IMG/VR virus record: IMGVR_UViG_3300038758_000056
Reading direction: 5' to 3' (one strand)
Length of the DNA stretch: 44,187 bases
Source: a virus
Of this stretch, positions 1,271-44,187 are shown one piece after another. The notes below the pieces were generated by a model that saw only the letters and a list, made by a program, of their open reading frames with translations, searched no databases and was not told the origin of the DNA. Positions within the stretch are counted from its first letter, which is position 1, and each line of letters opens with the position of its first letter. Made by a program: the position numbers and the translations under genes.

Positions 1271-3447
1271 TAGAATAGAGTTAAAACAGAATCACGTTCT
1301 TGAACTGCGGATCTATGGTTAGCTTCATTCAATTTAAAGTAACTCTCTTTCAGCTCGATACTGATTGACTTCCTATTCATCTTCAATGCTTGAAAACCCT
1401 CTGAACCTATGCCTCCAAATGGGCTGAAAACCGTCTCACCCTCATTTGAATATAAGTGAATGATTCTTTCTATCGTATCAAGCTGTAAAGGACAGATGTG
1501 CTTCTCATCATTACCGTCCCTACCAGACCTGTATTGAAGCGTTCTGGAGTAATCAATATCCATCCAAACTGGACTAGCATACTTCTGCCAAAGATCAACA
1601 GGTAAATAGTTGGGTTCGTTTGGGTCTGTGTCTTGGTGTGTTATAGGGGTTTCGTTTTCTCCTTCATTCCTAAAAAACAGAATGTAATCAGGTATACCCA
1701 CTCGCGACATTGCGCTATCCTTTTTAATAGTCTTATGCAGCAATCCTAGTGCCTTTGTTCGCTGCATTTCCGTAACCGGATTCTTCCATACTGTAGTCTT
1801 TGCGTGGTAAATAAACCCTTGATCAGAAAACCAATCAATCAACATTCCGCTAAAATCTCTTAGCCCGATAAATCCCTCTTTTCCTTTTTGTATTGGTAAG
1901 TCCATACAATGAACTGCGCAAATACGCCCCGACTTTAGGACTCGTTTCAATTCTGGAATCAGGTATTTGAAGTGCTGCTCAAATTCCTTGTAGTTTCTTA
2001 CATTACCCATGTCAGCCTCCTTATCTGAATACACATAAAGCTCAGCAAAGGGCGGGCTAAAAACAACCAGATCAGCGGAGTTGTCTTCTAGTTTTTTGGA
2101 TTCCGTAACGCAGTCCCCGTTTATAATTTTGTAGTCGTTGGTGTTCATTTCCTTGTTTATTACTTTGAAGTTTGATTTTAGTGTTTTGTAGTCAGCATTA
2201 GCGGAGTATTGGCTCATTTCATGAATCATTGTTTTATGCTTCAACTCCTTATTGAGAATGGTCTTTCTAACATTCACCTGACTCTCAGGTATGAGGATAT
2301 GGACATTGACCTTATTGGTTTGACCGAACCGATAGCACCTTCTTACAGCCTGGTAGAACGCCTCAAACTTGAAATCGTAAGACATAAATACCATATTGTG
2401 GCATTGCTGGTAATTCATGCCAAATGATGCAATTGATGTTTTCGTGACCAACACTCGAAAGTCTTTATTAGCAAACCCATTTAAATGTTTAGCCTTGTAT
2501 TCTGGGGAATCAGACCCTTGCACGTTTACAGAATCATTCAGAACCTTTGCGAGCGCATCCGTTTCCGCGTTCTTTAACCCCCACACGATCCACTGTTCGT
2601 CATTTGAATTAACCAACTCAACTGTCTTATCAACCCTTTTGTCAAACGATCTATTCAAATCCTTGTGTAGGTCGGTGGCTGAAACCGCAACATCTCCGAA
2701 TAAGGTCATTGTGTTGTTTTCAACCGGAATGACATGTTCAATGTATTCAATCTGTGGTAGATCATACCCGCACATTTCAAAGCCAAGTGTTGCGGGATTG
2801 TCTAGTGAAATAGACCACGTACATACGTACTTCCAAAAGTCGTCAGTTGCATGCTTTCTTAATCTCCATTTAGATGTTTCGCCACCATCATGCACAAAGT
2901 ACATTGCGAGCATTTCAAGATAGCTCATTGCTCCTAAAAACTCTGAGTGTTGGCCTAGCTCCATGTGGTCATTAGGGCTTGGCGTTGCAGTACAAGCTAA
3001 CTTGTATGGGGTGTCCTTGAATGTTTCGATTATCAACGAAGATAACTTACCGTCTCGCCCTTTTAAGATTGAACTTTCATCTAACACAACACCAGAATAT
3101 AATCTAGTATCCGTGTTTTTTAGTTGGTCGTAATTCGTAATATCAAAGCTATCTGTATTGATGCCGAATTGGACGGCCTCTTTTTTAGTCTGTTCCACAA
3201 CTGCCAGAGGTGCAAGTATCAGAACTTTTGCGCCCGTGTGATTGAATACAGCCTCCGCCCAAGCTAACTGCTGAATGGTCTTTCCTAATCCACAATCCTC
3301 AAATATTGCAAATCGCCCCTTCTGTAAAGCTATCTCAACGATATGCTTTTGAAATGGGAATAGGTTTTTATTTAGTAAATCGGGCTTGAATCCAGAAGAT
3401 ATAAACCCCTTCTTTTTGGTTTGCAGGAATTGTTCGTAGTCGTTCAT
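1270..3447 (-). CDS. SNF2-family helicase fused to a beta-class N4/N6 DNA methyltransferase
   Basis: Helicase motifs GLGKT, VLDESS, TATPSPN, QAVRRCYRFGQ in the N-terminal 2/3. C-terminal methylase motif IV (VVFSPPF) precedes motif I (FSPFGGIGSEG). Confidence 0.85.
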   Translation of the reverse strand: MNDYEQFLQTKKKGFISSGFKPDLLNKNLFPFQKHIVEIALQKGRFAIFEDCGLGKTIQQLAWAEAVFNHTGAKVLILAPLAVVEQTKKEAVQFGINTDSFDITNYDQLKNTDTRLYSGVVLDESSILKGRDGKLSSLIIETFKDTPYKLACTATPSPNDHMELGQHSEFLGAMSYLEMLAMYFVHDGGETSKWRLRKHATDDFWKYVCTWSISLDNPATLGFEMCGYDLPQIEYIEHVIPVENNTMTLFGDVAVSATDLHKDLNRSFDKRVDKTVELVNSNDEQWIVWGLKNAETDALAKVLNDSVNVQGSDSPEYKAKHLNGFANKDFRVLVTKTSIASFGMNYQQCHNMVFMSYDFKFEAFYQAVRRCYRFGQTNKVNVHILIPESQVNVRKTILNKELKHKTMIHEMSQYSANADYKTLKSNFKVINKEMNTNDYKIINGDCVTESKKLEDNSADLVVFSPPFAELYVYSDKEADMGNVRNYKEFEQHFKYLIPELKRVLKSGRICAVHCMDLPIQKGKEGFIGLRDFSGMLIDWFSDQGFIYHAKTTVWKNPVTEMQRTKALGLLHKTIKKDSAMSRVGIPDYILFFRNEGENETPITHQDTDPNEPNYLPVDLWQKYASPVWMDIDYSRTLQYRSGRDGNDEKHICPLQLDTIERIIHLYSNEGETVFSPFGGIGSEGFQALKMNRKSISIELKESYFKLNEANHRSAVQERDSVLTLF

Positions 3448-5777: not shown

Positions 5778-6409
5778 GCTAATACGATTGCCATTAGTTT
5801 CTCCTCAACGTCTTTACTTATCTCATAACCTTCCTTTAGTTTGGTCATTGAGCCAGCACCTTTGAGATACTTGATGCACTCATTGTACTTAGGGTGGTTG
5901 GCTGTTAAGACTTGCTTTGCTTTCGCTTGTGGGGTTTGAATTTCGTTAGAGTGTGTTGTCTCTGTATCGTCAATTTTCCCAACAGGTGTAAGGAATGTAT
6001 AGAGTAGAGCGTTTTTCATTGCGTAAGTTGTCGCCTTTCCCGCTCCCTTATCTTGCGGATCAACCCCGTGCCCGTATCCGCAAACGACTATTGATTGACC
6101 GCTTACGTGGTATAGATTATACTTAACTACAACCTTTGTAAACACAGACTGGAACATCTTAGTATCCTTTGGCGTTGATTTGCTCCACGGGTCTACACCC
6201 TCCCACCTATCAACCTGAGTTGACTCTTCAATGTCAAAAGGTATCATTGCTAGACCATGCTTAGATAGTGCGTCATTAAATACCTCTTTAACGTCTTGGT
6301 CTTTTGTTCCGTTGTAGGCGTTTTTGGAATTGCCACCAACGCGGCTGTTTTTTTCCATTCCCTTTACTTCTTTCATTACCGAGTTAACGGCTGTTATTAG
6401 TTCTTTCAT
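5774..6409 (-). CDS. erf: ERF-family single-strand annealing protein
   Basis: N-terminal pattern VMKEVKGMEKNSRVGG..AYNGTKDQDVKEVFNDALSKHGL resembles the ERF superfamily. Sits next to the SSB-like and NinG genes. Confidence 0.55.
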   Translation of the reverse strand: MKELITAVNSVMKEVKGMEKNSRVGGNSKNAYNGTKDQDVKEVFNDALSKHGLAMIPFDIEESTQVDRWEGVDPWSKSTPKDTKMFQSVFTKVVVKYNLYHVSGQSIVVCGYGHGVDPQDKGAGKATTYAMKNALLYTFLTPVGKIDDTETTHSNEIQTPQAKAKQVLTANHPKYNECIKYLKGAGSMTKLKEGYEISKDVEEKLMAIVLA

Positions 6410-7208: not shown

Positions 7209-7297
7209 GTGCGCACCCGCCTATCTTTTTCAATTATAACCCCAACACCCACCGCTGCTAGGGCTATGATGTGAATTATGTGATGTAATATATCCAT
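7163..7297 (-). CDS. Small membrane protein, 44 aa (MDILHHIIHIIALAAVGVGVIIEK...)
   Basis: Manual translation. First ORF after promoter P1; hydrophobic core. Confidence 0.35.
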   Translation of the reverse strand: MDILHHIIHIIALAAVGVGVIIEKDRRVRTWMVVCLIWIVASMT

Positions 7298-7314
7298 CGC
7301 TTTATTTGTTTCTC

Positions 7315-7388
7315 CAAACATACAACTATTTACATAAAGTGCAAAGAAAGGCTTCGTTTAATGCTTATTTGGAATGTTTCTAAATAAG
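7315..7388 (-). promoter_or_regulatory. Early promoter P1 with upstream palindromic operator
   Basis: Minus sense: operator CTTATTTAGAAACATTCCAAATAAG (7388..7364, 10/12 palindrome), -33 TTTG within TTTGCAC (7345..7339), 19-nt spacer, -7 TATGTTTG (7322..7315). Confidence 0.6.
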
Positions 7389-7802
7389 GTTCACTCTTAA
7401 ACATACCGACTCTATCTAAGCATTAGGGGGAGTAGTGCCTATTTGGTTAGCGTATACCTTCCTTACATTAGTCGTGGCCTCCTCAATCCTTTGTGCCGCC
7501 ACTTGATACTGGTTTAGTATCGTTTGGAATAACCCCTTGTTTTAACCGTTGGCACGTATGCTTTAGCTTGGTGTTGTCAGTCGGACGACATTGCACCTAC
7601 GGGGCTTTCTACACTATGAAAATTGGTTGAGCTTGTTCGCGGTTTGCCTTCGCTGTCGGTCAACTCTTATTAACCCCGACAATTATAGGTACAAATATAG
7701 AAAAAAATTAGCCCCATCCAACAGGACAGGGCCGCAATTTTGGCAAACCGCTAACCCGAAACGGGCTGCTGTAAAAGTACTATTAAATACTGTATAACAA
7801 AA

Positions 7803-8018
7803 TTAGTTCTGAGAAGCCGTTATCTGCTCCTGCTGTGCCTGATACGCTAACAACTCATCAGTATTAGCGCACGTGTCGAATATCCCATCCACTTGGTCTC
7901 TTAGATTGCGATACTTGTAGTGCATCCAGATTAAAAGGCAAAGACCTATAAAACTGAATAGCAGGACTACTAGGTTGATTATCAGGATTATCGTTATGAT
8001 AAAAACAACCTCACTCAT
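7803..8018 (-). CDS. Small membrane protein
   Basis: One long hydrophobic segment (VVFIITIILIINLVVLLFSFIGLCLLIW). 4-nt overlap with the upstream gene. Confidence 0.6.
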   Translation of the reverse strand: MSEVVFIITIILIINLVVLLFSFIGLCLLIWMHYKYRNLRDQVDGIFDTCANTDELLAYQAQQEQITASQN

Positions 8019-9050: not shown

Positions 9051-9260
9051 TCAGTCGTCTTGGGCGTGTAGCGTGTTAGCTAAAACAGGGTCTAGTATCC
9101 TTATCAATTCAAGGTCTTTTAACCACTCGTCCTTAGCCGCTTGTTTCTCTTCGTCTGTTGAGCCTATTCCTAGCTTCGCCTGTCTCGCTGCGTTTATCTT
9201 TAGAAAGTGGTCAACGAACCGCTTAACGCATTTGCAGGAAGGGTAGCAGGTCTCGGTCAT
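9051..9260 (-). CDS. Hypothetical protein
   Basis: ORF in operon context. Confidence 0.55.
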   Translation of the reverse strand: MTETCYPSCKCVKRFVDHFLKINAARQAKLGIGSTDEEKQAAKDEWLKDLELIRILDPVLANTLHAQDD

Positions 9261-9427
9261 TTTGATTTAGATAACCACTTCGGGTAAATGATTTCACCGT
9301 TACCATAGCACTCAATATGCGTAATGGTATTCTTCCTCGCAAATTTCAGCAAGTCCAAAGCCTCACTCATAGATAGGTTGGGGTGAAGTTTTCTAATATG
9401 GTCTAGTCGTAACCTTCCGTTGTTCAT
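9257..9427 (-). CDS. Hypothetical protein, 56 aa
   Basis: Manual translation MNNGRLRLDHIRKLHPNLSMSEALDLLKFARKNTITHIECYGNGEIIYPKWLSKSK. ATGA overlaps on both sides. Confidence 0.45.
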   Translation of the reverse strand: MNNGRLRLDHIRKLHPNLSMSEALDLLKFARKNTITHIECYGNGEIIYPKWLSKSK

Positions 9428-10008
9428 CGTTTAAGTCTTATTACTTGTCCTACTCTTAACGTGGCAAAGTGTGACTCCCCAGCCATGTAGCCTAATGAGA
9501 AATAAGTCCCACTTTTAAACTTCAATCCTAAGTCCACGCCCCCAAATATAGAGTTAAATTCGTTATTGTAACTAATACCCGTTCCCATCTGAGCCGATAA
9601 GATTAACTGAAAACGGTCTGGTTTGTAGGTGTTTACTATCGTTGGTCTTAGAATCTTGTAAGCAAATGAACGCCCAACAATCTCATTTTGATAGATGGTA
9701 TCAGTAATAGTAGCCTCTATATTAGTGTCCCGCCTAACGTCCTCAAACGTCTTTAGACTGTCCATCCATTGCGTTACTATCGCTAACGTGTCGTGCTTGG
9801 TTAGCGTAATAGTATCTCTTATTAGTTTTGGGACTTCGCGGTAGTGTATCGTTTCAACAACCTTTGGAATCTCCTTAATAATAACACGCTCGGTTGTGTC
9901 GTAGATGTATTCAGTTTCAACTCTAACGTTATCAGGGCCACAACCTCTGAACAGGAAGAAAGCGATTAGTAGTGCAACGGCTATAATGTAACCTAGATAC
10001 TTTTGCAT
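9424..10008 (-). CDS. Putative lipoprotein or membrane protein
   Basis: N-terminal signal/TM segment ending in FRGC (lipobox-like). First gene of the minus-strand operon. Confidence 0.5.
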   Translation of the reverse strand: MQKYLGYIIAVALLIAFFLFRGCGPDNVRVETEYIYDTTERVIIKEIPKVVETIHYREVPKLIRDTITLTKHDTLAIVTQWMDSLKTFEDVRRDTNIEATITDTIYQNEIVGRSFAYKILRPTIVNTYKPDRFQLILSAQMGTGISYNNEFNSIFGGVDLGLKFKSGTYFSLGYMAGESHFATLRVGQVIRLKR

Positions 10009-10034: not shown

Positions 10035-10182
10035 CGGGTGAATGTAGACCGATTTTCATTCAACGATGTAGCTATGGCACGTATCCCGAAGGGTATGGGC
10101 TATAGCGTGTGTTGTACACTGGCACGGTATATCAGCACAAAACTAACTACGAAGCAATACAGTAATAATTAAATATTGAGCG

Positions 10183-10634: not shown

Positions 10635-10886
10635 TTATGGACGCTAAACACCTACACCCGAACGATGCACTGACAGAGCATGTGTTTTTATCTGATGTTG
10701 GCAAAAACGAAGTGTCGTTTTAATGTTTGCCAACGGTTTGATAAGTGGCGCGATAGTGGCATTTATCACAGGTTGACGGAAATTGATTAATTTTGTACCA
10801 ATGACACCACTACAGATACTGGCTATTATCATGACGGCTTACGTCTTGGGGAGCATTGCGTATGAGTGTCTTAAATCGAGGCGGTA

Positions 10887-17038: not shown

Positions 17039-18590
17039 CACGATAGACCACCACCCTATAAGATTTGATTACTCAGCAGAGTGTAATCTGGTTGACCATA
17101 ACTGGATGCAGTACGCGGAGTATGGGGACGTTCAGCAGTTTCAATTAGAGATAGGCCCGTGCGCTTACGAACAAAACGCTATAAGTAACGGTTCGTTTAC
17201 GTCATCAAGTGATTGGACAATATCAGGCTCTACGTTTACAATCGATACGGTAAACGGTTGGGCGCAGAAAGTAACCGGAAGCGCGTCTAATATACGCCAA
17301 ACGTTACCAAGTGCTGACGATGTTTATTGGAGGGTTACAATGGACTTCGTTGTAACTACAGGGCAATTTGCGGTAACATACGGAACGGAGGTTAACATAG
17401 TTGATTCTAGTGGGTCTTATGAGTTTTGGATAACAGCCGACTCGGTTACTTCTTTGATAGTCTCCGCTGACGGTGCTGCTTCAGGAACGTTTACTAATGT
17501 AGTCGCAGTCCCGATTAACCTGAACTTCGAGGTTTATGTAGTAGACGCGAACGGGACAACCCAACACACTTACGATAAATCTGATTTCAACTTTACTAAC
17601 CAATGGGCTACACTTGGAGTTGATTGGCAGGATATAGCAGTAGGCGAGGGGTGTTACACTTTACAAGTATCAGACCCGTGTAATTGTGTGCAAGGTGGGT
17701 TTGTGCAAGAAGATTTCGAGACTGATACAGGGGCTTGGTCAACTGATAGTACATGGACAATCTCAGGCGGTTCAGCCGATTTCAACGGGTCAAGTGCAAC
17801 GGGTCAAGCCCTTATGTCTGGTGTGCTTTGCGCGGGGACTGAGTATGAGGTAGAATATACCCTAGCTAATATGGCGGGGAATACGTTTTACGTTCAGTTA
17901 GGTTCTGCAACAGGCACAACCCAAAATAGCAACGGTACGTTTACTGAGACGATCACATGTACTAACTCTTCATCTTTCAAGATGGTTGGCGGTGGTCTTA
18001 CATCTTCTCTATCTGTTACAGACCTGACAATAAGAGCAACCGCGCGAACGGTTCAACATACAAGTGTACCTATTCGAGTTCTTGAAAGCGCAGCCGACTG
18101 TACCCACAAGATTACAGTTTGCAACGATTCGGATGGAATGGGTGCTGGCTTTGAGTTTACAGGGTTCAGTCCAATGCTTAGAATCGGCTGTCAGTACGCT
18201 CACGGAGGCGCAACGGCCACAAGAAATAGTTATGAGTTCAGCACGGGCAAGAAGTCGACAACGTATTACAGAGGCCGCAAGAACAAGTCTCTAACGTTTG
18301 CAGCCCCTAGCTATGTACACGACTTCATGATTCACTTAGGAGGCTACGACCACGTTTATATTGACGGTACGGAGGTGTTTATTGAAGACGATGAATACCC
18401 TACAATAAGTTGGAATAAAGAGACTGATATGGGTGGGGTTACGCTTACGTTGAGGGAGAAAGATGTGTTGATTGAGAATAGAAGAAAGTCGAGCAAGGTA
18501 GAGGCTTGCGACCCTAACGGAAACCCGATCACAACAGGAAACAATGAAATCATATTCCTCCCAGACGGAGGAAGACTAACAACAGGATAA
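17031..18590 (+). CDS. Tail-tip or receptor-binding candidate with two similar modules
   Basis: Internal repeat of a motif (SSSDWTISGSTFTIDT and TDSTWTISGGSADFNG). Position follows the Dit-like gene. Confidence 0.4.
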   Translation: MANTIDHHPIRFDYSAECNLVDHNWMQYAEYGDVQQFQLEIGPCAYEQNAISNGSFTSSSDWTISGSTFTIDTVNGWAQKVTGSASNIRQTLPSADDVYWRVTMDFVVTTGQFAVTYGTEVNIVDSSGSYEFWITADSVTSLIVSADGAASGTFTNVVAVPINLNFEVYVVDANGTTQHTYDKSDFNFTNQWATLGVDWQDIAVGEGCYTLQVSDPCNCVQGGFVQEDFETDTGAWSTDSTWTISGGSADFNGSSATGQALMSGVLCAGTEYEVEYTLANMAGNTFYVQLGSATGTTQNSNGTFTETITCTNSSSFKMVGGGLTSSLSVTDLTIRATARTVQHTSVPIRVLESAADCTHKITVCNDSDGMGAGFEFTGFSPMLRIGCQYAHGGATATRNSYEFSTGKKSTTYYRGRKNKSLTFAAPSYVHDFMIHLGGYDHVYIDGTEVFIEDDEYPTISWNKETDMGGVTLTLREKDVLIENRRKSSKVEACDPNGNPITTGNNEIIFLPDGGRLTTG

Positions 18591-20066: not shown

Positions 20067-20151
20067 TAACTGAAGAAAGAACTGAGCCGTAAAATTACAC
20101 AACTGCGGCCAAATCTCACTACGCGAGTATTTAGCCATGTGTTGTATTTAA

Positions 20152-20499
20152 TTAACCCCCCCCTCGCCAATCTCTGTTGTGCTTACTTAATACCTCTCTT
20201 CCAATTTTTCTCACGGCTTCACAATCTTCACCCTGCATTTTTAGTCGTGCTATTGGTGTGTCAAAGTACCCCATTAGGTTATGTATGCAATCCAGTAATT
20301 CCTTATCGGGGTTTAACTCCGTTCGTTCCTCACTTAATACAACATCAGCTAAAGCATCAGAATTAACTTGTTCTAGGCGGTCGCAGTATGCTTCTAGTTC
20401 TTTTACAAATCTCATAACATCCGAAATAGGCACATTTGTCTCAACGCCTTTGTCAGTCACTTTTGGCTTTCCGTAATATTCTAGTTTTGGTCGTTTCAT
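20152..20499 (-). CDS. Hypothetical protein
   Basis: ORF; ends in a G8 run on the sense strand. Confidence 0.6.
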   Translation of the reverse strand: MKRPKLEYYGKPKVTDKGVETNVPISDVMRFVKELEAYCDRLEQVNSDALADVVLSEERTELNPDKELLDCIHNLMGYFDTPIARLKMQGEDCEAVRKIGREVLSKHNRDWRGGG

Positions 20500-20751: not shown

Positions 20752-20753
20752 AT

Positions 20754-20836
20754 AAAAAAAGCCCCAACTCTAGGTTAGGGCTAAAGCGGGGAGAAAAACA
20801 AGTAAAACCCCCGCAACGATGAACACTTCAAAGTTA
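20754..20836 (-). ncRNA. Candidate sRNA of about 70 nt (promoter box, two stem-loops, U7 tail)
   Basis: Minus sense: TAACTTTG box (20836..20829), stem GCGGGG/CCCCGC (20814..20786), stem GCCCTAAC/GTTGGGGC (20781..20761), then TTTTTTT (20760..20754). No ORF. Confidence 0.3.
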
Positions 20837-24493: not shown

Positions 24494-24519
24494 GGGCTGG
24501 CTTATTGCTGGCCCTTTTT
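24494..24519 (+). terminator. Intrinsic terminator
   Basis: GGGCTGGC - ttatt - GCTGGCCC (8 bp including 2 G-T pairs) followed by TTTTT. Confidence 0.7.
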
Positions 24520-24584
24520 CGTTTGCTACAACTGCCGCTAAATTCCATGCTACGCACGTCTATTTAGCGAGGTGTTGGCGGTAA

Positions 24585-24950
24585 TTACTCCACCAACTTA
24601 GCTATGTAAGTATTTTTATCTTTCCAGCCATCAGCATACTTTTTAGCGTCATCAAGTGTTTCAAACTTGTTGCTAAGTTGTATCATGCCTTCAACCCCTT
24701 CGTCTGAACCGTCTTCAAAAACAATGTAACTACCGCCAACAATGGGTATAGCACATATTTTTACTACTTCATCGAGAAAACTATCAAAGTCTTCTTCCAA
24801 AAGGGCGTTGGTGTGTTTGCTTGTTCCGCTTGGATAAGTGCTTTTTACTTTATCCCAAAGTGCTAGTTTCAATTTATCTTTCATGTTATTTAATTTTAGT
24901 GTTTCAATTCCGTAAAAATACGATGCCATACCCGAAGCCGTTATATGCAA
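24585..24950 (-). CDS. Hypothetical protein (true start probably the ATG at 24884 or 24929)
   Basis: The ORF-track start is a TTG lying inside the conserved intergenic element. Internal Mets give MKDKLKLALWDK... Confidence 0.55.
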   Translation of the reverse strand: MHITASGMASYFYGIETLKLNNMKDKLKLALWDKVKSTYPSGTSKHTNALLEEDFDSFLDEVVKICAIPIVGGSYIVFEDGSDEGVEGMIQLSNKFETLDDAKKYADGWKDKNTYIAKLVE

Positions 24951-24953
24951 TGG

Positions 24954-25502
24954 CTACCATCCGTCCATCACATAGGTGATTTTACAATCACCCACAAAGC
25001 CTTTTTGGTAGTGTAAACATCCAACGGGGAAGCCAAATCCAAATCCGTGTTTACTGCCTCCGCCCATATACACTATCTCTTTTAACCCACCGTATTCAAG
25101 CACCATCTTTTGTACTTTGTTGCTTTTAAAGGCTTTGGCTATCGGCACAAAGAACACAACATTGTCAGCAATAGAAAATGCCTTTTGAAGAAAGTGGTCA
25201 TAAATACTGTAAGGTGGGTTTGTAATTATCCAATCTACTTTCTTATCCCAATCAAAGAAGTCAAGTCCTTCGTCAATTTCACATCTGTATTTATTCTCGC
25301 TTTCAAATAAATCGTAAAAGGCATTTTCCCCAGCAGCAGGTTCTAAAATTGAGCCTTGTGGTTTAAAGTAATCTACAATCCATTTTGCTGTTGTGTTTTT
25401 AGTAAACACTCTGTCAGCAGCAGTAGCCGTCTTTGTCTTATTCGGCTTTGTTGGTGTTCCATTTCTTGTCATAATTTCATTTTTAATTAACCGCCACAGC
25501 AT
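24954..25502 (-). CDS. N6-adenine DNA methyltransferase, gamma-like class (start probably the ATG at 25472)
   Basis: Motif I ILEPAAGENAF and motif IV IITNPPYS. Confidence 0.8.
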   Translation of the reverse strand: MLWRLIKNEIMTRNGTPTKPNKTKTATAADRVFTKNTTAKWIVDYFKPQGSILEPAAGENAFYDLFESENKYRCEIDEGLDFFDWDKKVDWIITNPPYSIYDHFLQKAFSIADNVVFFVPIAKAFKSNKVQKMVLEYGGLKEIVYMGGGSKHGFGFGFPVGCLHYQKGFVGDCKITYVMDGW

Positions 25503-25569
25503 ATAACACAGAGTATAAATAACCCTACGGGTCGCTATCGCTTATTCATACCCACGTCCGTTATGCCCC
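25499..25569. repeat. Palindromic intergenic unit U2 (YAAC - L arm - loop - L arm - GTTR)
   Basis: GCATATAAC aca GAGTATAAATAA [19 nt] TTATTCATACCC acgtcc GTTATGCCCC. L arms complementary at 10/12; AAC pairs with GTT. Confidence 0.8.
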
Positions 25570-25571
25570 AT

Positions 25572-26114
25572 TTAAGAAAGCACCTCGAAAACGAATTTGC
25601 TTGGTAATAATTGACTGCATAAATAAATGCTTTTGAATGTAGCACCTTTTTTAATTACACCGTCTTTTATATAGTTAATTCGCTTATCAAAAACCATTAT
25701 TTCAAAAGGATTGTTTTTTAGCATTTCATACCTTTTCTTAGTATCAAATAATCCACTTTCATTTATCAATAAAGCAAATGGTTTGCCTATCAAAAATAAC
25801 CTATCTAAAATCGGTGTTCTTAAACTATATGGTGGGTTGCTAATAATGTAATCGTAATTTTGTGGCTCATATTCAAAAAAGTTTTTACCGTCTTCAATGT
25901 GTCCGTAAATTACAGTATTCCCATTTTCTCGGAGCAACTTTACAAAATTACTTTCTTCTTTATCAAATGGACACCATACAGTTTTATCACTTGGGATGTA
26001 TTTCAATAATGGCTTTATAGCATATTCAAGCGTATAAAATTCGTCTGATTTATTTATTTTGTCTTGTGCAAATTCGTGATTCATAAAATAAAGAATAAAA
26101 ACGGGGCATAACAC
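25572..26114 (-). CDS. EcoRI-methylase-like adenine DNA methyltransferase (start probably the ATG at 26084)
   Basis: SDEFYTLEYAIKPLLKYIP..KTVWCPFDKEESNFVKLL...YDYIISNPPYSLRTPILDRL matches the EcoRI_methylase-type family. Confidence 0.7.
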   Translation of the reverse strand: MLCPVFILYFMNHEFAQDKINKSDEFYTLEYAIKPLLKYIPSDKTVWCPFDKEESNFVKLLRENGNTVIYGHIEDGKNFFEYEPQNYDYIISNPPYSLRTPILDRLFLIGKPFALLINESGLFDTKKRYEMLKNNPFEIMVFDKRINYIKDGVIKKGATFKSIYLCSQLLPSKFVFEVLS

Positions 26115-26237
26115 ACGGTATAAAAAATTGGGGCGTGTGTAGTTTCCCGAAGGTTAATACTATTATTTATCATTGTGGCGGTGCGAAAGTTTATCTCTTT
26201 TAATCCCCAACTTTTCATACCGCAAAACGTTAGCTGC
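26103..26237. repeat. Palindromic intergenic unit U5
   Basis: GGGGCATAAC aca CGGTATAAAAAA [84 nt] TTTTCATACCG caaaac GTTAGCTGC. L arms complementary at 10/11. Confidence 0.75.
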
Positions 26238-26448
26238 AAGCGAGTGGTCGCCAAGCAATACATTCAGCAAAAGGCATATCGTCATCGTAAAATTCGCAAA
26301 CACTACCGTCATCAAATAGCATTTCAAAGTTTTCGCCCGTAGGCATTTCAATTAGGTTCACTTCGTTTTGCTCACCTTTGATAAATCGCCAGCAGCTAAC
26401 ATCCGCTACAGTGCATGGCTGTTGGTTGTTTTCTGATACTGTACTCAT
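26230..26448 (-). CDS. Small acidic hypothetical protein
   Basis: ORF rich in Asp/Glu (EFYDDDMPFAE). Confidence 0.55.
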   Translation of the reverse strand: MSTVSENNQQPCTVADVSCWRFIKGEQNEVNLIEMPTGENFEMLFDDGSVCEFYDDDMPFAECIAWRPLACS

Positions 26449-26507
26449 AATTCAAAGTTTATTTTTGTTTAGATGCGTTGTTGAAAGCCACGCACCATAG
26501 CTTTTAC

Positions 26508-26545
26508 GTTGTATGCCATTGAAACGGTACGCTTCGCCATACAAC
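26508..26545. repeat. Closed GTT...AAC hairpin: GTTGTATG - 22 nt - CATACAAC
   Basis: 8-bp perfect inverted repeat read directly. Same end motifs as the gene-bracketing arms but with nothing inside. Confidence 0.7.
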
Positions 26546-26565
26546 ATGGTATATAAGCAAAAAAC

Positions 26566-26808
26566 TTAACTACCATTCTCCTTTTCATTAAGGTACTCGA
26601 AATAAGAAAGGGCAGCCGTGAATGAACACCAACCTATTTTCTTACCAATACCCTCCCAAACTGCTTTACAATAAGTCATATCATTTCCATACTCATTATC
26701 GTTCCACCTTTTTAATTCTGCTTCTATGGTCGGGATATGCCCTTGTGCTTCCAAACCAAATACTACTTTAAGCCCTTTCTTTTCGACTTCTTCAAATAAT
26801 TCTTTCAT
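26566..26808 (-). CDS. Hypothetical protein
   Basis: ORF in the accessory island. Confidence 0.6.
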   Translation of the reverse strand: MKELFEEVEKKGLKVVFGLEAQGHIPTIEAELKRWNDNEYGNDMTYCKAVWEGIGKKIGWCSFTAALSYFEYLNEKENGS

Positions 26809-26864
26809 AATTTATCCGTTAAGTTTTCTACTCATATACCTGTCTGTTGGTAGTAATAGTTTTG

Positions 26865-27068
26865 CTATCTATTAACTTGATAAATAGCTATTGCACCAAT
26901 AGAGGTAATAGCACCTTCTATCGCTACTAAAAACCTAATGTTTTGTTCCCAATTTGCAAAATTCATTTCAAGCAATACAAATGCATTTCCTAGATACCAA
27001 ACCGCAAAACCACATACTACCAACAAAGTATAAAGTGCATAGCTTTTAAGTGTTTTAATTATGTCCAT
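26865..27068 (-). CDS. Small membrane protein (2 TM)
   Basis: Two hydrophobic segments: YALYTLLVVCGFAVWYLGNAFVLL and FLVAIEGAITSIGAIAIY. Confidence 0.6.
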   Translation of the reverse strand: MDIIKTLKSYALYTLLVVCGFAVWYLGNAFVLLEMNFANWEQNIRFLVAIEGAITSIGAIAIYQVNR

Positions 27069-27126
27069 TTTTTTTATTTAAGTTATTTTTAATTCAGTTA
27101 TTCGTGCTGTTTAGGTCGCTACGACA

Positions 27127-27153
27127 CCTTATACAAACCGTTACCCACAATAC
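27127..27153. repeat. Half unit (L arm CCTTATACAAA - cc - GTTACCCACAATAC) 3' of gene 27164..27691
   Basis: Carries the left arm of the 13/14 inverted repeat whose partner is at 27725..27738. Confidence 0.7.
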
Positions 27154-27163
27154 TACGTGAGTG

Positions 27164-27691
27164 CTACCAATTGAATTTTTCAGCGTTTAAGTAAACTTGT
27201 GTGTGTATTCTTCTTTGATTGACATTTATAGTGGTTGGGTGTATGAACTTCTTTGGTATTACACGAATAAAACACCTCCAAGTATGTTCATTACTCATAA
27301 TACCTCTATGTAAATCATTTTGAGTGAACGTATGCCATTTCTGTTCTTCTTTAAAGTAGTTGTTTCCCTCCTTATCTTTGTATTCTGTTAGCGGAGGGCC
27401 ACTTAACCACATATACATTTTCTCGCCTGTTATACCTCTAAAATCTCTTTTCAAGTTTTCATCTCTTGGTACAAAATCTCTGTGCCAATTTGGAATACAA
27501 GGGAATTGCTTCGGCATAAGCATATGTATTTTTACATCAACTGCATATTCCTCTTTAGGTAATTCAAGTAGTCCAGATTCCAACAACTCGTTTATTATAG
27601 GTTCTACTTCGGGCATTAATTCTATTGTCTTTTCAAACGAGCAAAGCATAACTCCATTTGTACTTTTACTCCAATCAATATTATGTTTCAT
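27164..27691 (-). CDS. Hypothetical protein with HxD...H motifs (possible Fe(II)/2-oxoglutarate dioxygenase or cupin-like fold)
   Basis: NWHRDFVP ... NDLHRG ... WRCFIRV could form a facial triad plus Arg. No confident family match by eye. Confidence 0.3.
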   Translation of the reverse strand: MKHNIDWSKSTNGVMLCSFEKTIELMPEVEPIINELLESGLLELPKEEYAVDVKIHMLMPKQFPCIPNWHRDFVPRDENLKRDFRGITGEKMYMWLSGPPLTEYKDKEGNNYFKEEQKWHTFTQNDLHRGIMSNEHTWRCFIRVIPKKFIHPTTINVNQRRIHTQVYLNAEKFNW

Positions 27692-27724
27692 TATCTGTTT
27701 TTTTAAATTTTATACTAAAAACCC

Positions 27725-27769
27725 GTACTGTGGGTAACACTAAATATACCCCATATTCCGTTGCACTAC
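27725..27769. repeat. Short palindromic unit U1
   Basis: GTACTGTGGGTAAC acta AATAT accccc... ATATT cc GTTGCACTAC. AAC pairs with GTT, and the AATAT/ATATT arms pair. Confidence 0.6.
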
Positions 27770-27821
27770 ATACGGTGCATATTCTCAACGTTGTGTCTTG
27801 CTTAGTTTCGCGCAATATACT

Positions 27822-39682: not shown

Positions 39683-39729
39683 GGTGTCTGCTTCGGGTTT
39701 CCCTCAACCCGCGCAGCCCCGCTAAAGGC

Positions 39730-39759
39730 CGTTGCGATCATTAAAACGGATCGCTAACG
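39730..39759. repeat. Closed GTT...AAC hairpin: CGTTGCGATC - 9 nt - GATCGC(t)AACG
   Basis: 10-bp stem with one bulge, in the convergent intergenic region. Confidence 0.65.
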
Positions 39760-39765
39760 TTCCAT

Positions 39766-39795
39766 AAAAGGCATGGCGAAAAGCCACGTCCTTTT
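39766..39795. terminator. Bidirectional intrinsic terminator between convergent units
   Basis: AAAAGGCATGGC - gaaaa - GCCACGTCCTTTT. A-run on one side and T-run on the other. Confidence 0.65.
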
Positions 39796-39816
39796 ATCGA
39801 GACGTTGTGCGCAATA

Positions 39817-40065
39817 TTACCTACTACGCATATCTACACAAGCAATAATAGCGGTTTTAGTATGGTAAACATAAATTTGCCACTCACTATTACCCGTGTT
39901 GCTTTCTTTAACCCAAAGAACACCATGATACCAACCTTCTTTCTTTTCTGCCATATATCTCTCTTCAAATTCTATGGCTTTCTGTAATGCTTCGGTTCTT
40001 AAAAAACCGCTATTAGCGTCTGCTTTTATAATTATTTTTTTCATATAAAAATAAATACTGCGCAC
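39817..40065 (-). CDS. Hypothetical protein (start probably the ATG at 40044)
   Basis: The ORF-track start is a GTG lying inside the inverted-repeat arm. MKKIIIKADANSG... from the ATG. Confidence 0.55.
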   Translation of the reverse strand: MRSIYFYMKKIIIKADANSGFLRTEALQKAIEFEERYMAEKKEGWYHGVLWVKESNTGNSEWQIYVYHTKTAIIACVDMRSR

Positions 40066-40195
40066 AACATTGTATATAAATCAGTGGCGTTGTACGTCTT
40101 TTTAACCACTTTTAGCTGTTTAATTTAGTTTAAGCGTGTCGGCAATCTTACAGCTATTAATCGCCACCGCTTCATATACTTAACCGTTAGCGGTA
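40054..40195. repeat. Palindromic intergenic unit U4
   Basis: AATACTGCGCACAAC att GTATATAAA [90 nt] TTCATATAC ttaacc GTTAGCGG. L arms complementary at 8/9. Confidence 0.7.
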
Positions 40196-40405
40196 ATTCT
40201 CCCAATCAATACCATACTTCTCACAAATTTCAATTGCATCTCTACCAATTATTCCAACTGTTGAGCCAGCATAATCTTTTCCCCAACGTTGAGCAGCAAC
40301 TACTATTACCCTTTCAATTTTTAAGGGCAAAGAACTACCGCTAACATCGGCTATAAAATCATTGCCGTTTTCGTGATTATTCAAAGTTTTTTTCTCTTTA
40401 TTCAT
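40187..40405 (-). CDS. Hypothetical protein
   Basis: ORF in the accessory island. Confidence 0.6.
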   Translation of the reverse strand: MNKEKKTLNNHENGNDFIADVSGSSLPLKIERVIVVAAQRWGKDYAGSTVGIIGRDAIEICEKYGIDWENYR

Positions 40406-40477
40406 GTCGTTTATAATTTAAAAGTTATAGTCTTTTTATCAGCAACGCTTCATAGCCGTATCCCGTTGTGTGTAATG

Positions 40478-40729
40478 CTACGCAAATTCTAATTCGAGCT
40501 TTAATCGTTCTATTTCGGTCTTTGCCTTATCAATGTAGTGGTTCAATGTAGCTATCCTACTTTCAGCCCAAGCAGAATTATCTAAACAATCCTTTGCCCA
40601 ATCATTCATTTTAGAGTGTTTTAGTCGCTTAGAATTATTTCTGCCATTCACTTCTTTTTTCAATTGCCTTAGTTCAGCAATACCTTTTCTAAGCTCTACA
40701 ATCCGTGTTATTTTCTCGTCTTTTGTCAT
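40478..40729 (-). CDS. Hypothetical coiled-coil protein
   Basis: ORF in the accessory island. Confidence 0.6.
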   Translation of the reverse strand: MTKDEKITRIVELRKGIAELRQLKKEVNGRNNSKRLKHSKMNDWAKDCLDNSAWAESRIATLNHYIDKAKTEIERLKLELEFA

Positions 40730-40757
40730 TTCAATTAAGTTTTATAGTTAAAAATCA

Positions 40758-40840
40758 GCACTCCCCACAACACTTTGTATAGTGCATAGCTCGTGCCTCA
40801 CTACGACACCATACAAGATGCCGTTGTACACAAGCACTAC
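40758..40840. repeat. Palindromic intergenic unit U3
   Basis: GCACTCCCCACAAC a CTTTGTATAGTG [22 nt] CACCATACAAG atgcc GTTGTACACAAGCACTAC. L arms pair with one bulge and one mismatch. Confidence 0.7.
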
Positions 40841-40877: not shown

Positions 40878-40892
40878 ATAATTAAATATTTT
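40878..40892. repeat. AT-rich inverted-repeat arm ATAATTAAATATTTT (partner 41661..41675)
   Basis: Perfect 15/15 complement of 41661..41675; overlaps the stop codon of 40882..41655. Confidence 0.8.
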
Positions 40893-41655
40893 CTCCCACC
40901 CGCTCAAAAGGTAATTCTCTTACCAAGTATTCTTCGGGTATTTCCTGTACCTTATCTATTTGCTTAAAAAAGTAAGGAACATTTTGGCTTCTACATTCTA
41001 ATTTCAATCGGTCAGCCCAAAGCAAATCAAACGGTCTTTTTCCGTGTCCGCTTTCACCGCCTTGAATTACCCAGCCAATCCCAGATAAATCAATATTCTT
41101 TATTTCTGCCAATTGTGGTTCTACACTCAAAAACAAATTTCCATTTACCTGTTGAAGGATTGGTACAAGGTTTTCAAATGTCTTTTGGTCAACAGGAGAG
41201 CATCCGAACCAAACGTTTTTTGGTGGGTAATTTTGCCAATCTAAAGGAATTTGTTTGTTGATATTGCTTGGTCTTTTAGTCAAAAAAAGGAAAGTAAGAT
41301 TGTTGTATTTACCATTTGAAATTCTATTGAATAATTCGTTTCTCAAATCTTCGGTAGTTTCAGCCAATAAGTGCTTGTTTGATATTGGTTTTGACTTCTC
41401 GAAAATATCCATCATTGACCCAACAAATACTCTTACATCAATTCCTTTTTCTTCAGCTTCCTTTTGATATTTATTTAAATCATTGAAAGCTGATTTAATT
41501 CTTTTGCGGTCTTTTCCTTCACCCCAAATGTCATTACCCCATCTATGCGATAATGTTTCTGCATAGCAGTTATCACATCCAGCGTGTACTTTAGTACATC
41601 CCCACCAAAGATTAACCGTGTGTTCTGTCCATTCTATTTTACTGTTTTTTGCCAT
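40882..41655 (-). CDS. Phage Gp37/Gp68 family protein (DUF5131)
   Basis: N-terminus SKIEWTEHTVNLWWGCTKVHAGCDNCYAE is the family signature. Confidence 0.85.
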   Translation of the reverse strand: MAKNSKIEWTEHTVNLWWGCTKVHAGCDNCYAETLSHRWGNDIWGEGKDRKRIKSAFNDLNKYQKEAEEKGIDVRVFVGSMMDIFEKSKPISNKHLLAETTEDLRNELFNRISNGKYNNLTFLFLTKRPSNINKQIPLDWQNYPPKNVWFGCSPVDQKTFENLVPILQQVNGNLFLSVEPQLAEIKNIDLSGIGWVIQGGESGHGKRPFDLLWADRLKLECRSQNVPYFFKQIDKVQEIPEEYLVRELPFERVGENI

Positions 41656-42870: not shown

Positions 42871-44187
42871 TTAGAAGTGTTCACTCTGGACATCTATTCT
42901 AGTGTTTTCTATTGGTGGTAAACTGTTTGGGTCATCGAATCTAGTACATTCCGCTTGAAAATCAAACTCAACATCCAATGTTGATCCATGTCTGTTCTTA
43001 GCTATTAATACAAATGCCTTCCCCACTTGGTCGCCTTCTTGGTAATACTCTGGCCGGAAAAGGAACTCAACCACGTCTGCATCCTGTTCAATCGCGCCTG
43101 ATTCTCTAAGGTCTGCCAAAACGGGACGGTTGCCGCTGCGGGTGTCTGAGTTTCGGTTCAACTGCGACAAAGCAATAACAGGAACTTGCAAGTCTTTAGC
43201 CATCATTTTTAGTGTTCGACTTATCTCACTTACCTCATTTTCCCTACTTCGTCCCCTCGCAACTGAGTGTTGAACCAGACCAATGTAGTCAATAAACACC
43301 GCGTCTAGTTGGCCTTTCATTTTCAGCTTCTTACACCGTGTTCGGATTCCTGACAATTGGTAAACATCGTCAATTATCATAAGGTTATCGCTTTGAACTC
43401 CTCCGCTTTGAGCGTTGAATATGCCCCATTGGTCTTTGGTTAGTAGTCCAGACCTTAAATCTTTGATCGGTATTCGGGTGTGAACGCTCACAAGCCTTTG
43501 CATCAATTCCTCCGCGCTCATTTCCAACGAAAAGAAAGCTACTCTGTAATTGTAGTCGAACGCCATGTGATAGGCTTCGCAAAGTGCGTTGGCAGTCTTA
43601 CCCATTGCGGGGCGACCCGCTTTAATTATCAAATGTGCTGGCTGTCTGCCTCCGTAAATAGTGTCCAGAATCTTGTAGCCTGTTCTTAGACCTGTAACCC
43701 CACCTTTTGTCATTGCCTTTTCCATCCGTTCGGATAGCGAAGCAACGAGCGCGGTATTAGTTTTAGGTTGGCTCATATCTGTCAGGCTGACGATGCGTTC
43801 AGTCTCTGACATTAGGTGGTTGTTCGTTTCTAGCGGGTCGTTAGCGTCATCAATCGCAAGGTTTGATATTTCGTAGCCTAGTTTCAGTTGCTCCCGTTGT
43901 ATCTCAATCTGCCTCAGCATCAGACAGTCCTCCGCGAATGTTCGGGAAGTACCGCCATCTGTTGTCAGTTTATAGACATCAACCTTCTCATTGGATCGGT
44001 TTATTTCCTGCTGGATTGATTCGAGCGATACGATTCTACCTTGCAGCGAAAGCGTTTCAAGTGCCTTGTACGTAACTTGGTTTTCTAGTTTGTAGAACGT
44101 CTCGAAGGATATTAACCCATTGCTTTCAACGTACAGGTCTGGGTTTAGCAGTAGTGAACCTATTACTTTCGCTTCTAGCCTTATGTT
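42871..44187 (-). CDS. dnaB: Replicative DNA helicase, DnaB family (5'-truncated by the window edge; full gene about 443 aa)
   Basis: Walker A GRPAMGKTANAL, Walker B-like AVFIDYIGLV, RecA-like C-terminal domain. The frame stays open upstream of the listed Met to the window end (checked codon by codon). Confidence 0.9.
   Translation of the reverse strand, partial: NIRLEAKVIGSLLLNPDLYVESNGLISFETFYKLENQVTYKALETLSLQGRIVSLESIQQEINRSNEKVDVYKLTTDGGTSRTFAEDCLMLRQIEIQREQLKLGYEISNLAIDDANDPLETNNHLMSETERIVSLTDMSQPKTNTALVASLSERMEKAMTKGGVTGLRTGYKILDTIYGGRQPAHLIIKAGRPAMGKTANALCEAYHMAFDYNYRVAFFSLEMSAEELMQRLVSVHTRIPIKDLRSGLLTKDQWGIFNAQSGGVQSDNLMIIDDVYQLSGIRTRCKKLKMKGQLDAVFIDYIGLVQHSVARGRSRENEVSEISRTLKMMAKDLQVPVIALSQLNRNSDTRSGNRPVLADLRESGAIEQDADVVEFLFRPEYYQEGDQVGKAFVLIAKNRHGSTLDVEFDFQAECTRFDDPNSLPPIENTRIDVQSEHF
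44097..44187. repeat. Terminal direct repeat, copy 2 (identical to 1..91)
   Basis: Same 91-nt string as 1..91; lies inside the dnaB-like reading frame. Confidence 0.95.

Follow-up and report, generated by a model that had tools for sequence, protein, structure and literature searches.

Two palindromic units, U3 and U4, in the virus record IMGVR_UViG_3300038758_000056 of the IMG/VR database (44,187 nucleotides, nt; hereafter termed the window) are probably two of about a dozen attC-like sites, of the type found in integrons, that delimit mobile cassettes in two accessory islands of a Bacteroidota phage. The outer boxes of any one unit do not pair with each other beyond their AAC and GTT ends, but the 5' box of each following unit (N+YAAC) reads as the reverse complement of the 3' box before it (GTTR+N), and each gene is thus bracketed by an inverted repeat of 10-15 bp. 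The core site with which an integron cassette starts has its match in the inverse core site of the attC belonging to that cassette, since both meet in the circular form, and complementarity of the sequences flanking a gene is the classical signature of such cassettes. By analogy, box pairing across genes would here too be the hallmark of integron cassettes. The original prediction, in which U3 and U4 were described as palindromes, overlooked that the outer boxes pair across genes instead of within a unit, and it is because of this pairing across each gene that the units can be read as cassette boundaries.

The unit family has at least 12 members in the window, located in two low-GC islands of minus-strand genes. 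On this coding strand, the units present a common order, consisting of a 5' box ending in YAAC, a spacer, an arm, a loop, the complementary arm, a second spacer and a 3' box starting with GTTR. The 5' box often overlaps the TAA stop codon of the preceding gene, the 5' spacer (5-7 nt in the window units) is unpaired and mostly starts with G, and the 3' spacer is 1-3 nt long. The arms span 10-20 nt, and the loop, which ranges from 4 to ~300 nt, may hold the start of the next gene or a whole open reading frame (ORF). Most units measure ~45-205 nt from AAC to GTT, with c3 reaching 306 nt. Nested inverted repeats of the form R''-L''…L'-R' with AAC/GTT outer ends are seen in U3, U4 and 10 more units of the window and, across all loci, in 315 units, for which the modal spacers, also unpaired, are 5 nt on the 5' side and 1 nt on the 3' side. 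BLAST comparison of the window units against all fetched loci returned short matches only, indicating that the architecture, and not the sequence, is common to most other units.

The sequences and coordinates originally quoted for U3 (40758-40840) and U4 (40054-40195) are accurate, and both units form part of an array of four. U3, or unit d1, extends over 40758-40837 on the minus strand, with its AAC at 40825-40823 and its GTT at 40771-40769. Its 5' part is made up of the box ..GTGTACAAC, the spacer GGCAT(C), the arm (C)TTGTATGGTG(T) and a loop of ~20 nt, and its 3' part of the arm (G)CACTATACAA(AG), the spacer (AG)T and the box GTTGTGGGGAGT; the pairing scan assigns it 11 pairs and no mismatch. 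A gene for 83 amino acids without family match (40478-40729, minus) separates U3 from unit d2 (40332-40480, minus; AAC 40467-40465, GTT 40345-40343), which has arms CGGCTATGAAG and TTTTATAGCCG and a loop of 89 nt that includes the ATG at 40405 (11 pairs, no mismatch, two G·T), while its 3' box GTTAGCGGTAGT falls inside the ORF at 40187-40405. This ORF is the next cassette gene (minus strand, 72 amino acids) and is followed by U4, or unit d3 (40054-40201, minus), the AAC of which (40188-40186) overlaps the TAA stop codon and the GTT of which is at 40068-40066. The 5' part of U4 comprises the box ..ATTACCGCTAAC, the spacer GGTTAA, the arm GTATATGAAGCGGTGGCG and a loop of 72 nt, and the 3' part the arm CGCCACTGATTTATATAC, the spacer AAT and the box GTTGTGCGCAGTATT, adding up to 17 pairs with one mismatch, two G·T and no T·G. 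Beyond the cassette gene after U4 (39817-40044, minus; 75 amino acids), unit d4 (39720-39818, minus; AAC 39806-39804, arms TCGATAAAAGG/CCTTTTATGGA) closes the array with a 3' box, GTTAGCGATC, that is followed 9 nt on by GATCGCAAC, making up an 'empty' box pair.

The pairing of boxes across genes can be followed along this array. The d2 3' box, GTTAGCGGTA at 40345, exactly complements the U4 5' box, TACCGCTAAC at 40186, around the gene at 40187-40405, and the U4 3' box, GTTGTGCGCAGTATT (40068), pairs with AATATTGCGCACAAC (39804) around the gene at 39817-40044. The U3 3' box matches the d2 5' box, TTACACACAAC, imperfectly, with 8 Watson-Crick pairs and one wobble out of 11 as judged by eye. The first array (24519-27805, minus) harbors eight units, c1-c8, and seven genes, including two DNA methyltransferases. 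Its AAC/GTT positions are 27792/27736 (c1), 27142/27022 (c2), 26848/26543 (c3), 26510/26398 (c4), 26231/26110 (c5), 25562/25505 (c6), 24942/24738 (c7) and 24576/24530 (c8), all on the minus strand, and the c3 loop contains a whole ORF of 80 amino acids (26566-26808). Its box pairs are GTTACCCACA/TGTGGGTAAC around the gene at 27164-27691, GTTGGTAGTA/TACTACCAAC, GTTAGCTGC/GCAGCTAAC, GTTATGCCCC/GGGGCATAAC around the methylase gene at 25572-26084, GTTATATGC/GCATATAAC and GTTGGCGGTA/TACCGCCAAC. Exact 10-nt inverted pairs of the GTTR…/…YAAC type lying 60-1600 nt apart occur 9 times in the window, against 0.67 ± 0.78 in 300 shuffles (maximum 3), and the island genes are bracketed by six exact and two one-mismatch pairs of this length. 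When all loci are taken together, box complementarity links 83 of the 136 pairs of adjacent units; among random pairs the rate is 2%, and between the two boxes within a unit it is 3%. The resulting helix has the consensus 5'-A-T-T-N-C-N3-Y-A-A-C with 5'-G-T-T-R-N3-G-N-A-G-T; at position 11, the 5' box has a T in all 83 cases, opposite a G in 61 of them. Both the box-chaining and the polarity tests (see below) are independent of the scanner used to call the units.

These results modify the original prediction in several respects. The GTAGTR consensus proposed to follow each stop codon is not conserved, as it falls in the 5' box, a variable element that changes together with the 3' box of the unit before it. 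Similarly, the supposed half units at 27.1, 24.9 and 40.47 kilobases (kb) turn out to be full ones, whose 3' arm and GTT box are found 30-170 nt downstream, in the 5'-terminal part of the next ORF. On the other hand, the assignment of U3 and U4 to the same palindromic family as units located 14 kb away is borne out by the AAC/GTT ends, the GTATR/YATAC arm core and the unequal spacers that they have in common with the 25-26 kb units, which the pairing scan also recovers. This similarity is not reducible to low-complexity AT stretches; the arms co-vary, as do the boxes, and other genomes contain the elements in abundance. The motif AACGG-N1-9-TATR is found 17 times in the window versus 5.5 ± 2.2 times in shuffles, none of 100 shuffles reaching 17, and those of its copies that are intergenic lie without exception on the minus strand of the two islands. 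A looser hairpin scan (9 pairs, any AAC/GTT) proved too noisy (149/168 against ~80/72 in shuffles), and the criteria were then tightened.

Good folding of the units is limited to the coding strand, since the imperfections of the arms amount to G·T wobbles there and to C·A mismatches on the other strand. U4 folds with -18.1 kcal/mol on the minus strand (z = -2.2) and with -12.5 on the plus strand (z = -0.1), where its hairpin is not formed; the corresponding values are -8.6 (z = -1.1) and -6.1 kcal/mol (z = -0.7) for U3, and -7.6 versus -3.1 kcal/mol for c6. The 315 units from all loci contain 649 G·T against 193 T·G arm wobbles (G on the 5' arm), a direction that is not affected by the partial circularity of other arm statistics resulting from a scanner that selects for pairing, and high-confidence units typically present at least two G·T and no T·G. 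The strand bias of the units stems from wobbles, together with a C·A mismatch that recurs, and hairpins are not obtained on the plus strand.

A strand bias of this kind can also be read as the mark of units that act mainly in RNA, as intercistronic hairpins involved in termination or attenuation, in the protection of 3' ends or in RNase III-type processing of the kind seen between early T7 genes. On the mRNA-sense strand, the wobbles of the phage units are G·U, these units come directly after stop codons and before the next start, a T-rich region follows the 3' box and, among the matches listed, the strand that folds coincides with the transcribed sense strand at 112 of 122 viral sites. The RNase III hairpins of T7 are comparable in that they form families between genes, have an asymmetric internal loop and lie on the mRNA-sense strand of a phage, but they show no cross-gene box pairing, host-chromosome arrays or recombinase link. 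We consider a primary RNA role unlikely, since it leaves unexplained the box complementarity of 10-15 nt across genes, the block ends at AAC and the adjoining tyrosine recombinase, both described below. Moreover, a terminator scan yielded 13 sites versus 15.8 expected, with neither U3 nor U4 flagged, and no Rfam family was matched, as Rfam 15 gave no hit over the window units (E ≤ 1) or on eight array-bearing loci (E ≤ 0.1). Intrinsic terminators were rejected as a reading of the units, for the arms are AT-rich and the T-rich tract starts ~10 nt past the stem and not directly after it. A secondary RNA function of the units in phages could coexist with a role in recombination.

The units also coincide with the ends of gene blocks that are seen in otherwise unrelated genomes. 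Homologues of the DUF5131 gene located upstream of U3 (40882-41655, minus) are present in 30 IMG/VR contigs without other similarity to the window, and several are flanked by units of the same architecture with different arm sequences; in the window itself, no partner 3' box was found for this cassette on its upstream (5') side on the minus strand. Two otherwise unrelated contigs, L003 and L004, have in common one block of 921 bp (86.5%) that runs from the TAACG of the upstream unit to the TAACG of the downstream unit. L003 and L005 are 99.9% identical and differ in a replacement (560 nt versus 64 nt) and in another divergence, all bounded by AAC|. The 75-residue gene of the U4 cassette is found with 96% nucleotide identity in L283/L284, a ligase-encoding phage, and with 88% in L277-L282, a phage encoding RecA, PhoH and SegE, the two backbones being unrelated. 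Its block ends with ..GCGCACAAC| at AAC (window 39804) in the comparison with L277-L282 and two bases later, with ..CACAACGT| (39802), in that with L283/L284, and L277 and L282 diverge from each other directly after the same AAC. For the 72-residue gene block between d2 and U4, similarity with L152 stops at ATTACCGCTAACGGT|, that is, ATTACCGCTAAC(GGT), and similarity with L154 spans exactly GTT|AGCGGTA…ACCGCTAA|, from GTT| to |TAA. In all, at least 10 independent block or indel boundaries fall within AAC or right after it. The 5' ends of older blocks lie within the upstream core or at its 3' end, which suggests that a gene moves with the core upstream of it and that the sharp crossover is the AAC of the 5' box. 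Canonical attC sites are cut at AA|C on the bottom strand (= G|TT), and a crossover at the 5'-box AAC of the folded strand would, by analogy, correspond to this position.

Mobile blocks might also arise if the units were passive recombination linkers, similar to the regulatory modules known as promoter-early stem-loop (PeSL) cassettes, with ordinary homologous recombination shuffling their neighbors. In agreement with this, the cores are ~91% identical between otherwise unrelated contigs (L004/L016, L003/L028 and L024/P12002L, the last being a Polaribacter phage), some block boundaries are at the 3' end of the core and not at AAC, and genes for a single-strand annealing protein of the ERF family and for a NinG homologue are present in the phage. 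Homologous exchange, however, predicts breaks anywhere in shared sequence and not repeatedly at AAC beside differing boxes, and it explains neither the co-variation of boxes across a gene and the conserved G·T at position 11, nor the strand-asymmetric wobbles, nor the recombinase-headed bacterial arrays reported below. PeSL cassettes of T4-type phages carry a promoter and act via homologous recombination. As in the window, their repeated intergenic stem-loops flank small accessory genes in hyperplastic regions and coincide with the boundaries of shuffled genes; unlike them, the window units have no host-type promoter (TAnnTTTG boxes were not seen at units or island cassettes, although they are present at the main operons), their breakpoints are site-specific and their boxes co-vary across genes. 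Taken together, these data make passive linkers an improbable explanation.

In L283 (6925-6950, compared with L282 325-410), all that is left of the core upstream of the U4-cassette homologue is TAAC-GGTAG-GTATATG-GTTAGTGCAC, which looks like an internal deletion between the 5'-arm GTTAGTGCGC and the similar 3' box GTTGTGCGC and implies that cores can collapse by short-repeat deletion. The phage contigs L003/L005 from IMG/VR contain at 5914-6209 a run of 15-nt tandem repeats, GGAATAGCGGTNAC…, with staggered self-matches. A phage array of ~12 cassettes with three N6_N4 methylases, the same units and a GTATG-type arm occupies positions 598-5618 of L156 (ENA ERZ28669879 contig, 55 kb); each of its genes has a strong AGGAGG Shine-Dalgarno sequence, for which reason its host is probably not a member of the Bacteroidota, and several of its 5' boxes end in AAT, not AAC.

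Units of the same family are also found in bacteria. A pattern representing one sub-family, GGCTTGGCGARG-N70-100-TTGCCAAACC, was derived from phage contigs and run on viral and genome collections, where it matched at least 120 genome loci, nearly all of them from Bacteroidota and some from isolates, belonging to the Flavobacteriales, Chitinophagales, Cytophagales, Saprospiraceae, Sphingobacteriales and Bacteroidales. Many of these loci carry homogeneous arrays in which units are densely packed (as many as 13 within 8 kb) and show the same box chaining and wobble bias. The report on IntegronFinder 2.0 lists for the Bacteroidetes essentially only In0 elements and a single complete integron, and our literature search found no paper describing these Bacteroidota arrays. 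Among the matches listed, an ORF of at least 150 amino acids with the box II of tyrosine recombinases lies within the 8-kb locus in 11 of 120 genome loci and in one of 120 viral loci. Eight of the 11 ORFs were scanned against NCBIfam, and all eight match NF040815 ('site-specific tyrosine recombinase/integron integrase'), two of them above its cut-off (best, 233 bits), as well as the integron integrase model TIGR02249, at 174-214 bits and below the cut-off. The TIGR02249 alignments come in two stretches (model positions 2-179 and ~255-330) that skip positions ~180-254, and these model coordinates suggest that the array recombinases lack the IntI-specific insertion. The six longest (347-377 amino acids) present an extra N-terminal region of ~90 residues, for which no confident Pfam match was obtained and which might be a site-specific DNA-binding domain; a motif in this extension, (A/S)(R/L)WS…K.W.LPD, is common to L140 6172-7284, L059 2748-3863, L101 2919-4001, L136 1828-2871 and L037 2305-3393. 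The recombinase gene stands at the head of the array in seven loci, where it runs in the direction of the cassette ORFs. L001 (IMG/VR, isolate-derived, 53 kb, probably a prophage) is a rare viral contig carrying the enzyme, with family units and a Xer/integron-like tyrosine recombinase of 268 amino acids some 8 kb apart (17276-18082 and 9227-9663).

The orientation of the sites relative to the genes that they accompany differs between the two collections. Coding was scored within ±900 nt of each site, and among the matches listed the 122 sites on viral contigs have it on the same strand in 112 cases, on the opposite strand in five, mixed in five and little of it in none, whereas for the 122 sites on genome contigs the respective figures are 11, 86, 21 and four. 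ORFs are on the folding strand in the window and in P12002L too. The exceptions among genome contigs are mostly short (under ~5 kb) and could be mis-binned. Given this reversal of ORF polarity, phage cassettes would not be simply borrowed host cassettes. The viral copies also form a length class of their own, 101-102 nt as compared to 108 nt in genomes. The loop of the bacterial 108-nt version (e.g. L050 and L137) is conserved and includes a pair of direct repeats, ACAAATGT-N5-GCGGAG-(A/C)AC, to which a protein might bind. Their reading on the ORF-sense strand is ..CATTTGT.., close to the -7 promoter box of Bacteroidota, and the viral 102-nt version differs there. Polarity also bears on the RNA role discussed above: with bacterial sites antisense to the ORFs at 86 of the 122 listed, the mRNA would carry the poorly folding strand. 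Since bacterial sites are antisense to ORFs and lie beside a tyrosine recombinase, a reading of the units as RNA elements or protein-binding sites, to which the tests proposed with the original prediction are directed, is not the best supported.

The nature of the adjoining enzyme bears as well on a third explanation, by which the units would be ends or relics of single-strand transposons, such as repetitive extragenic palindromic (REP) repeats with their REP-associated tyrosine transposases (RAYT), IS200/IS605 hairpin ends or miniature inverted-repeat transposable elements (MITEs). Strand-specific folding of the hairpin, a short conserved sequence at its 5' foot and intergenic units inserted beside a fixed short sequence are in line with it. 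The window, however, encodes no HUH/Y1 transposase, the bacterial arrays are accompanied instead by a tyrosine recombinase from the Xer/integron group, there is a single hairpin per mobile unit and not one per end, and cross-gene box pairing fits circular cassettes and not hairpin-ended transposons, all of which renders a transposon origin highly improbable. Further readings were discarded on specific grounds. The 3' arm does not encode a conserved peptide (..CY..PF..), as other members read TGTTAG (stop) in frame; invertible promoters are ruled out by loops as short as 4-22 nt, solitary repeats like those of clustered regularly interspaced short palindromic repeats (CRISPR) by the lack of repeat identity and regular spacing, and promoters of the extracytoplasmic function (ECF) type (AAC … CGT) by wrong spacing.

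We infer from the cassette-like organization that recombination takes place at the units, and the following steps are proposed for it. The coding strand, when single-stranded, would allow the site to fold, and a host tyrosine recombinase of the integron-integrase/Xer-like group would cut within the AAC of the 5' box with a geometry like that of the bottom-strand AA|C of attC. Exchange with another site would then insert, excise or swap a unit consisting of the C, the spacer, the arms and loop, the GTT box, the gene and the next box up to its AA. If the stretch from AAC to AAC were circularized, its two boxes could form the long R-box helix that closes a complete site. In a phage without such an enzyme, the arrays would behave like clusters of attC sites lacking an integrase (CALINs), and the layout of the window is CALIN-like, with 8 and 4-5 chained sites and no integrase.

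Several observations weigh against the assignment of the units to an integron-type system. The window contains no tyrosine recombinase or any other recombinase able to act on such sites, and for its phage neither an excised circle nor an empty site was observed. Folding z-scores of single units are weak (the best is only -2.2), so that the case rests on comparative evidence and not on thermodynamics. Bulged extrahelical bases were not demonstrated in the units, and the 7-nt consensus RYYYAAC/GTTRRRY is absent beyond YAAC/GTTR, with positions 5-7 devoid of purine/pyrimidine bias in logos of 137 box pairs; the plus-strand readings are CCACAAC/GTTGTAC for U3 and GCACAAC/GTTAGCG for U4. ORFs overlap the 3' arm and the 3' box, which is unusual for attC sites, and phage ORFs are on the folding strand, a polarity that is the reverse of that in sedentary chromosomal integrons. 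Among the older block boundaries, a minority coincide with the GTT side or fall within the core and not at AAC. The bacterial recombinases, in turn, match the integron-integrase model in two separate stretches, apparently without the IntI insertion. Finally, attC1 of P12002L, the closest look-alike of the window units, did not recombine with IntI1 in E. coli (PMC9892861).

The closest precedent for the window arrays is the attC cluster of that phage, which we assign to the same family. Clusters of attC sites without an integrase have been described in virulent phages, including Polaribacter phage P12002L (Qi et al. 2023, PMC9892861), for which two predicted attC sites, described as divergent in direction, were called by HattCI (one of them also by Infernal) and attC2 was shown to recombine with IntI1; box chaining across genes, the wider family and the difference in polarity are not described there. 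In our comparison of the P12002L region, the same unit family appears between methyltransferase genes, all on the coding strand: attC1 reads TGCTAAC-GGCTAC-GGCTAAACGG…CCGTTTTAGCC-AT-TGTTAGGC, neighboring intergenic regions have AACGG…GTATGG and AACGGTTTGTATAA motifs as in the window, and GCTAACGGACGAGTGTATGGCAAG and CAACGGTTTGTATAAAAAATCG are further examples. P12002L and the window have in common the R''/L''…L'/R' layout, the AAC/GTT ends, an unpaired spacer, a variable loop, methyltransferase cargo and the lack of a phage integrase, while the window units differ from attC sites in lacking RYYYAAC/GTTRRRY beyond YAAC/GTTR.

Sedentary chromosomal integrons (e.g. the Vibrio VCR arrays) resemble the arrays found here in their long homogeneous series of folded sites between small ORFs, in the complementarity between core site and inverse core site, in the G|TT crossover, equivalent to AA|C on the folding strand, and, for the bacterial arrays, in ORFs antisense to the folding strand. 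The box helix here is, in contrast, 10-12 bp long with a conserved G·T, and not 7 bp, the strand bias comes from wobbles and mismatches and not from demonstrated extrahelical bases, and the array recombinase, unlike IntI, has apparently no insertion, has ~90 extra N-terminal residues and is co-directional with the cassettes in the seven loci mentioned above. Classical attC spacers are 5-6 nt on each side, and the units here are more asymmetric. The pdif (dif) modules of Acinetobacter plasmids, which are moved by the host XerC/XerD at 28-bp duplex sites (11-6-11), are likewise accessory modules, bracketed by inverted sites, that pass between replicons without a recombinase of their own and are served by a Xer-like enzyme, but pdif sites have no hairpin, strand-asymmetric wobbles or AAC/GTT core.

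Not all family-like units are oriented with minus-strand accessory genes. The original prediction of such an orientation holds for the units of the islands and fails for the window as a whole, which also contains family-like units on the plus strand (10062-10113 and 10732-10774), co-oriented with plus-strand genes. One is a solitary unit upstream of a plus-strand operon (10050-10125, plus), AAC-gatgta-GCTATGGCACGTATCC-cgaa-GGGTATGGGCTATAGC-gtgt-GTTGTACAC, with 15 pairs and wobbles that favor the plus strand, and the other, likewise solitary (10721-10786, plus), reads AAC-ggtt-TGATAAGTGGCGC-gata-GTGGCATTTATCA-cag-GTTGACGG. A small unit after the minus-strand gene at 20152-20499 (20090-20155, minus), AAC-aca-TGGCTAAAT-[14]-ATTTGGCCG-ca-GTTGTG, belongs to the family with less certainty. 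The 3' box GTTGTACAC of the first plus-strand unit (10111-10119) is identical to the plus-strand reading of the U3 5' box (40823-40831), giving a direct repeat whose copies are 30.7 kb apart on oppositely oriented units, which could reflect a past inversion or exchange between sites or be a coincidence.

The window is a circularly closed, complete phage contig of 44,096 bp, as deduced from an exact direct repeat of 91 nt at its termini (1-91 = 44097-44187). It encodes a terminase, a portal and a tape-measure protein, along with DnaB, the ERF-family annealing protein, NinG, an amidase and an SNF2-helicase/methylase fusion, and this gene complement identifies a tailed phage. Its host is almost certainly a member of the Bacteroidota, given that its sole DNA match among deposited phages is a segment of 134 bp in Cellulophaga phage phi17:1, that TAnnTTTG boxes, of the Bacteroidota type, precede the main operons and that no Shine-Dalgarno sequences were seen upstream of the start codons of island genes. 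The two islands of small minus-strand genes (24.5-27.8 kb and 39.7-41.7 kb) have ~35% G+C, compared with ~43% elsewhere, and their cargo in the window, consisting of two DNA methyltransferases, one DUF5131 protein and small proteins without family, is typical of accessory cassettes. Searches of IMG/VR with the portal protein and a 300-residue protein detected no close relatives of the phage, and scans of the window for transfer RNA and tmRNA genes found none, nor was there any enrichment in sigma-70 promoters.

Outside the islands, the replication module contains a gene (1270-3447, minus) for a 725-residue fusion of an SNF2/DEAD-type helicase and an N6/N4 DNA methylase, additional to the two cassette-borne methyltransferases. 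A stretch of 594 nt without ORFs inside a leftward operon (7209-7802, local sense minus) holds a host-type promoter box, TATATTTG, and a strong local hairpin, GTTAGCGGTTTGCC…GGCAAACCGCGAAC, at 7755-7635, and an exact 10-nt inverted pair, GTTAGCGTAT…ATACGCTAAC, is located at 7851/7446; no Rfam match was found in this stretch, which may be a non-coding RNA or an origin-like region. Between convergent genes, a strong terminator-like hairpin, AGCCCTAACC…GGGGCT followed by a T run (20753-20796, minus), is the only part covered by a weak Rfam match to 'Betaproteobacteria toxic sRNA' (27 bits, E = 0.17).

Beyond the window, we tentatively propose, as a scenario that is quite possible, that phages of Bacteroidota, and at least one phage with Shine-Dalgarno sequences, keep a large integron-type cassette pool of their own, and that its sites are of one family with those of an unrecognized, phylum-wide integron-like system in Bacteroidota chromosomes, served by an IntI/Xer-like recombinase without the insertion and largely invisible to IntegronFinder. 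With ORFs flipped in phages, both pools could use one host enzyme and yet stay insulated in expression, for it may be speculated that a host cassette in a phage, or a phage cassette in a host array, would be antisense and silent. It is equally speculative that the flip places the folding strand on the non-template, lagging-strand-template side, where it might be single-stranded more often and hence more recombinogenic. Phage accessory islands have so far been explained by illegitimate or homologous recombination, and, if our interpretation is right, the units would provide a site-specific mechanism for the assembly and exchange of the hyperplastic accessory islands of many phages. Integron-type biology would then reach a phylum in which IntegronFinder has reported almost nothing, by means of an integrase-like enzyme that apparently lacks the insertion thought to be essential for attC recognition. 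The phage-versus-host polarity rule (112/122 against 11/122 same-strand sites among the matches listed) bears on strand choice, transcription and replication in the recombination of folded DNA, the box-chaining rule (GTTR+N7… …N7+YAAC) offers a simple annotator of cassette boundaries in phage genomes, and the sites themselves could serve as structure-specific recombination tools in Bacteroidota.

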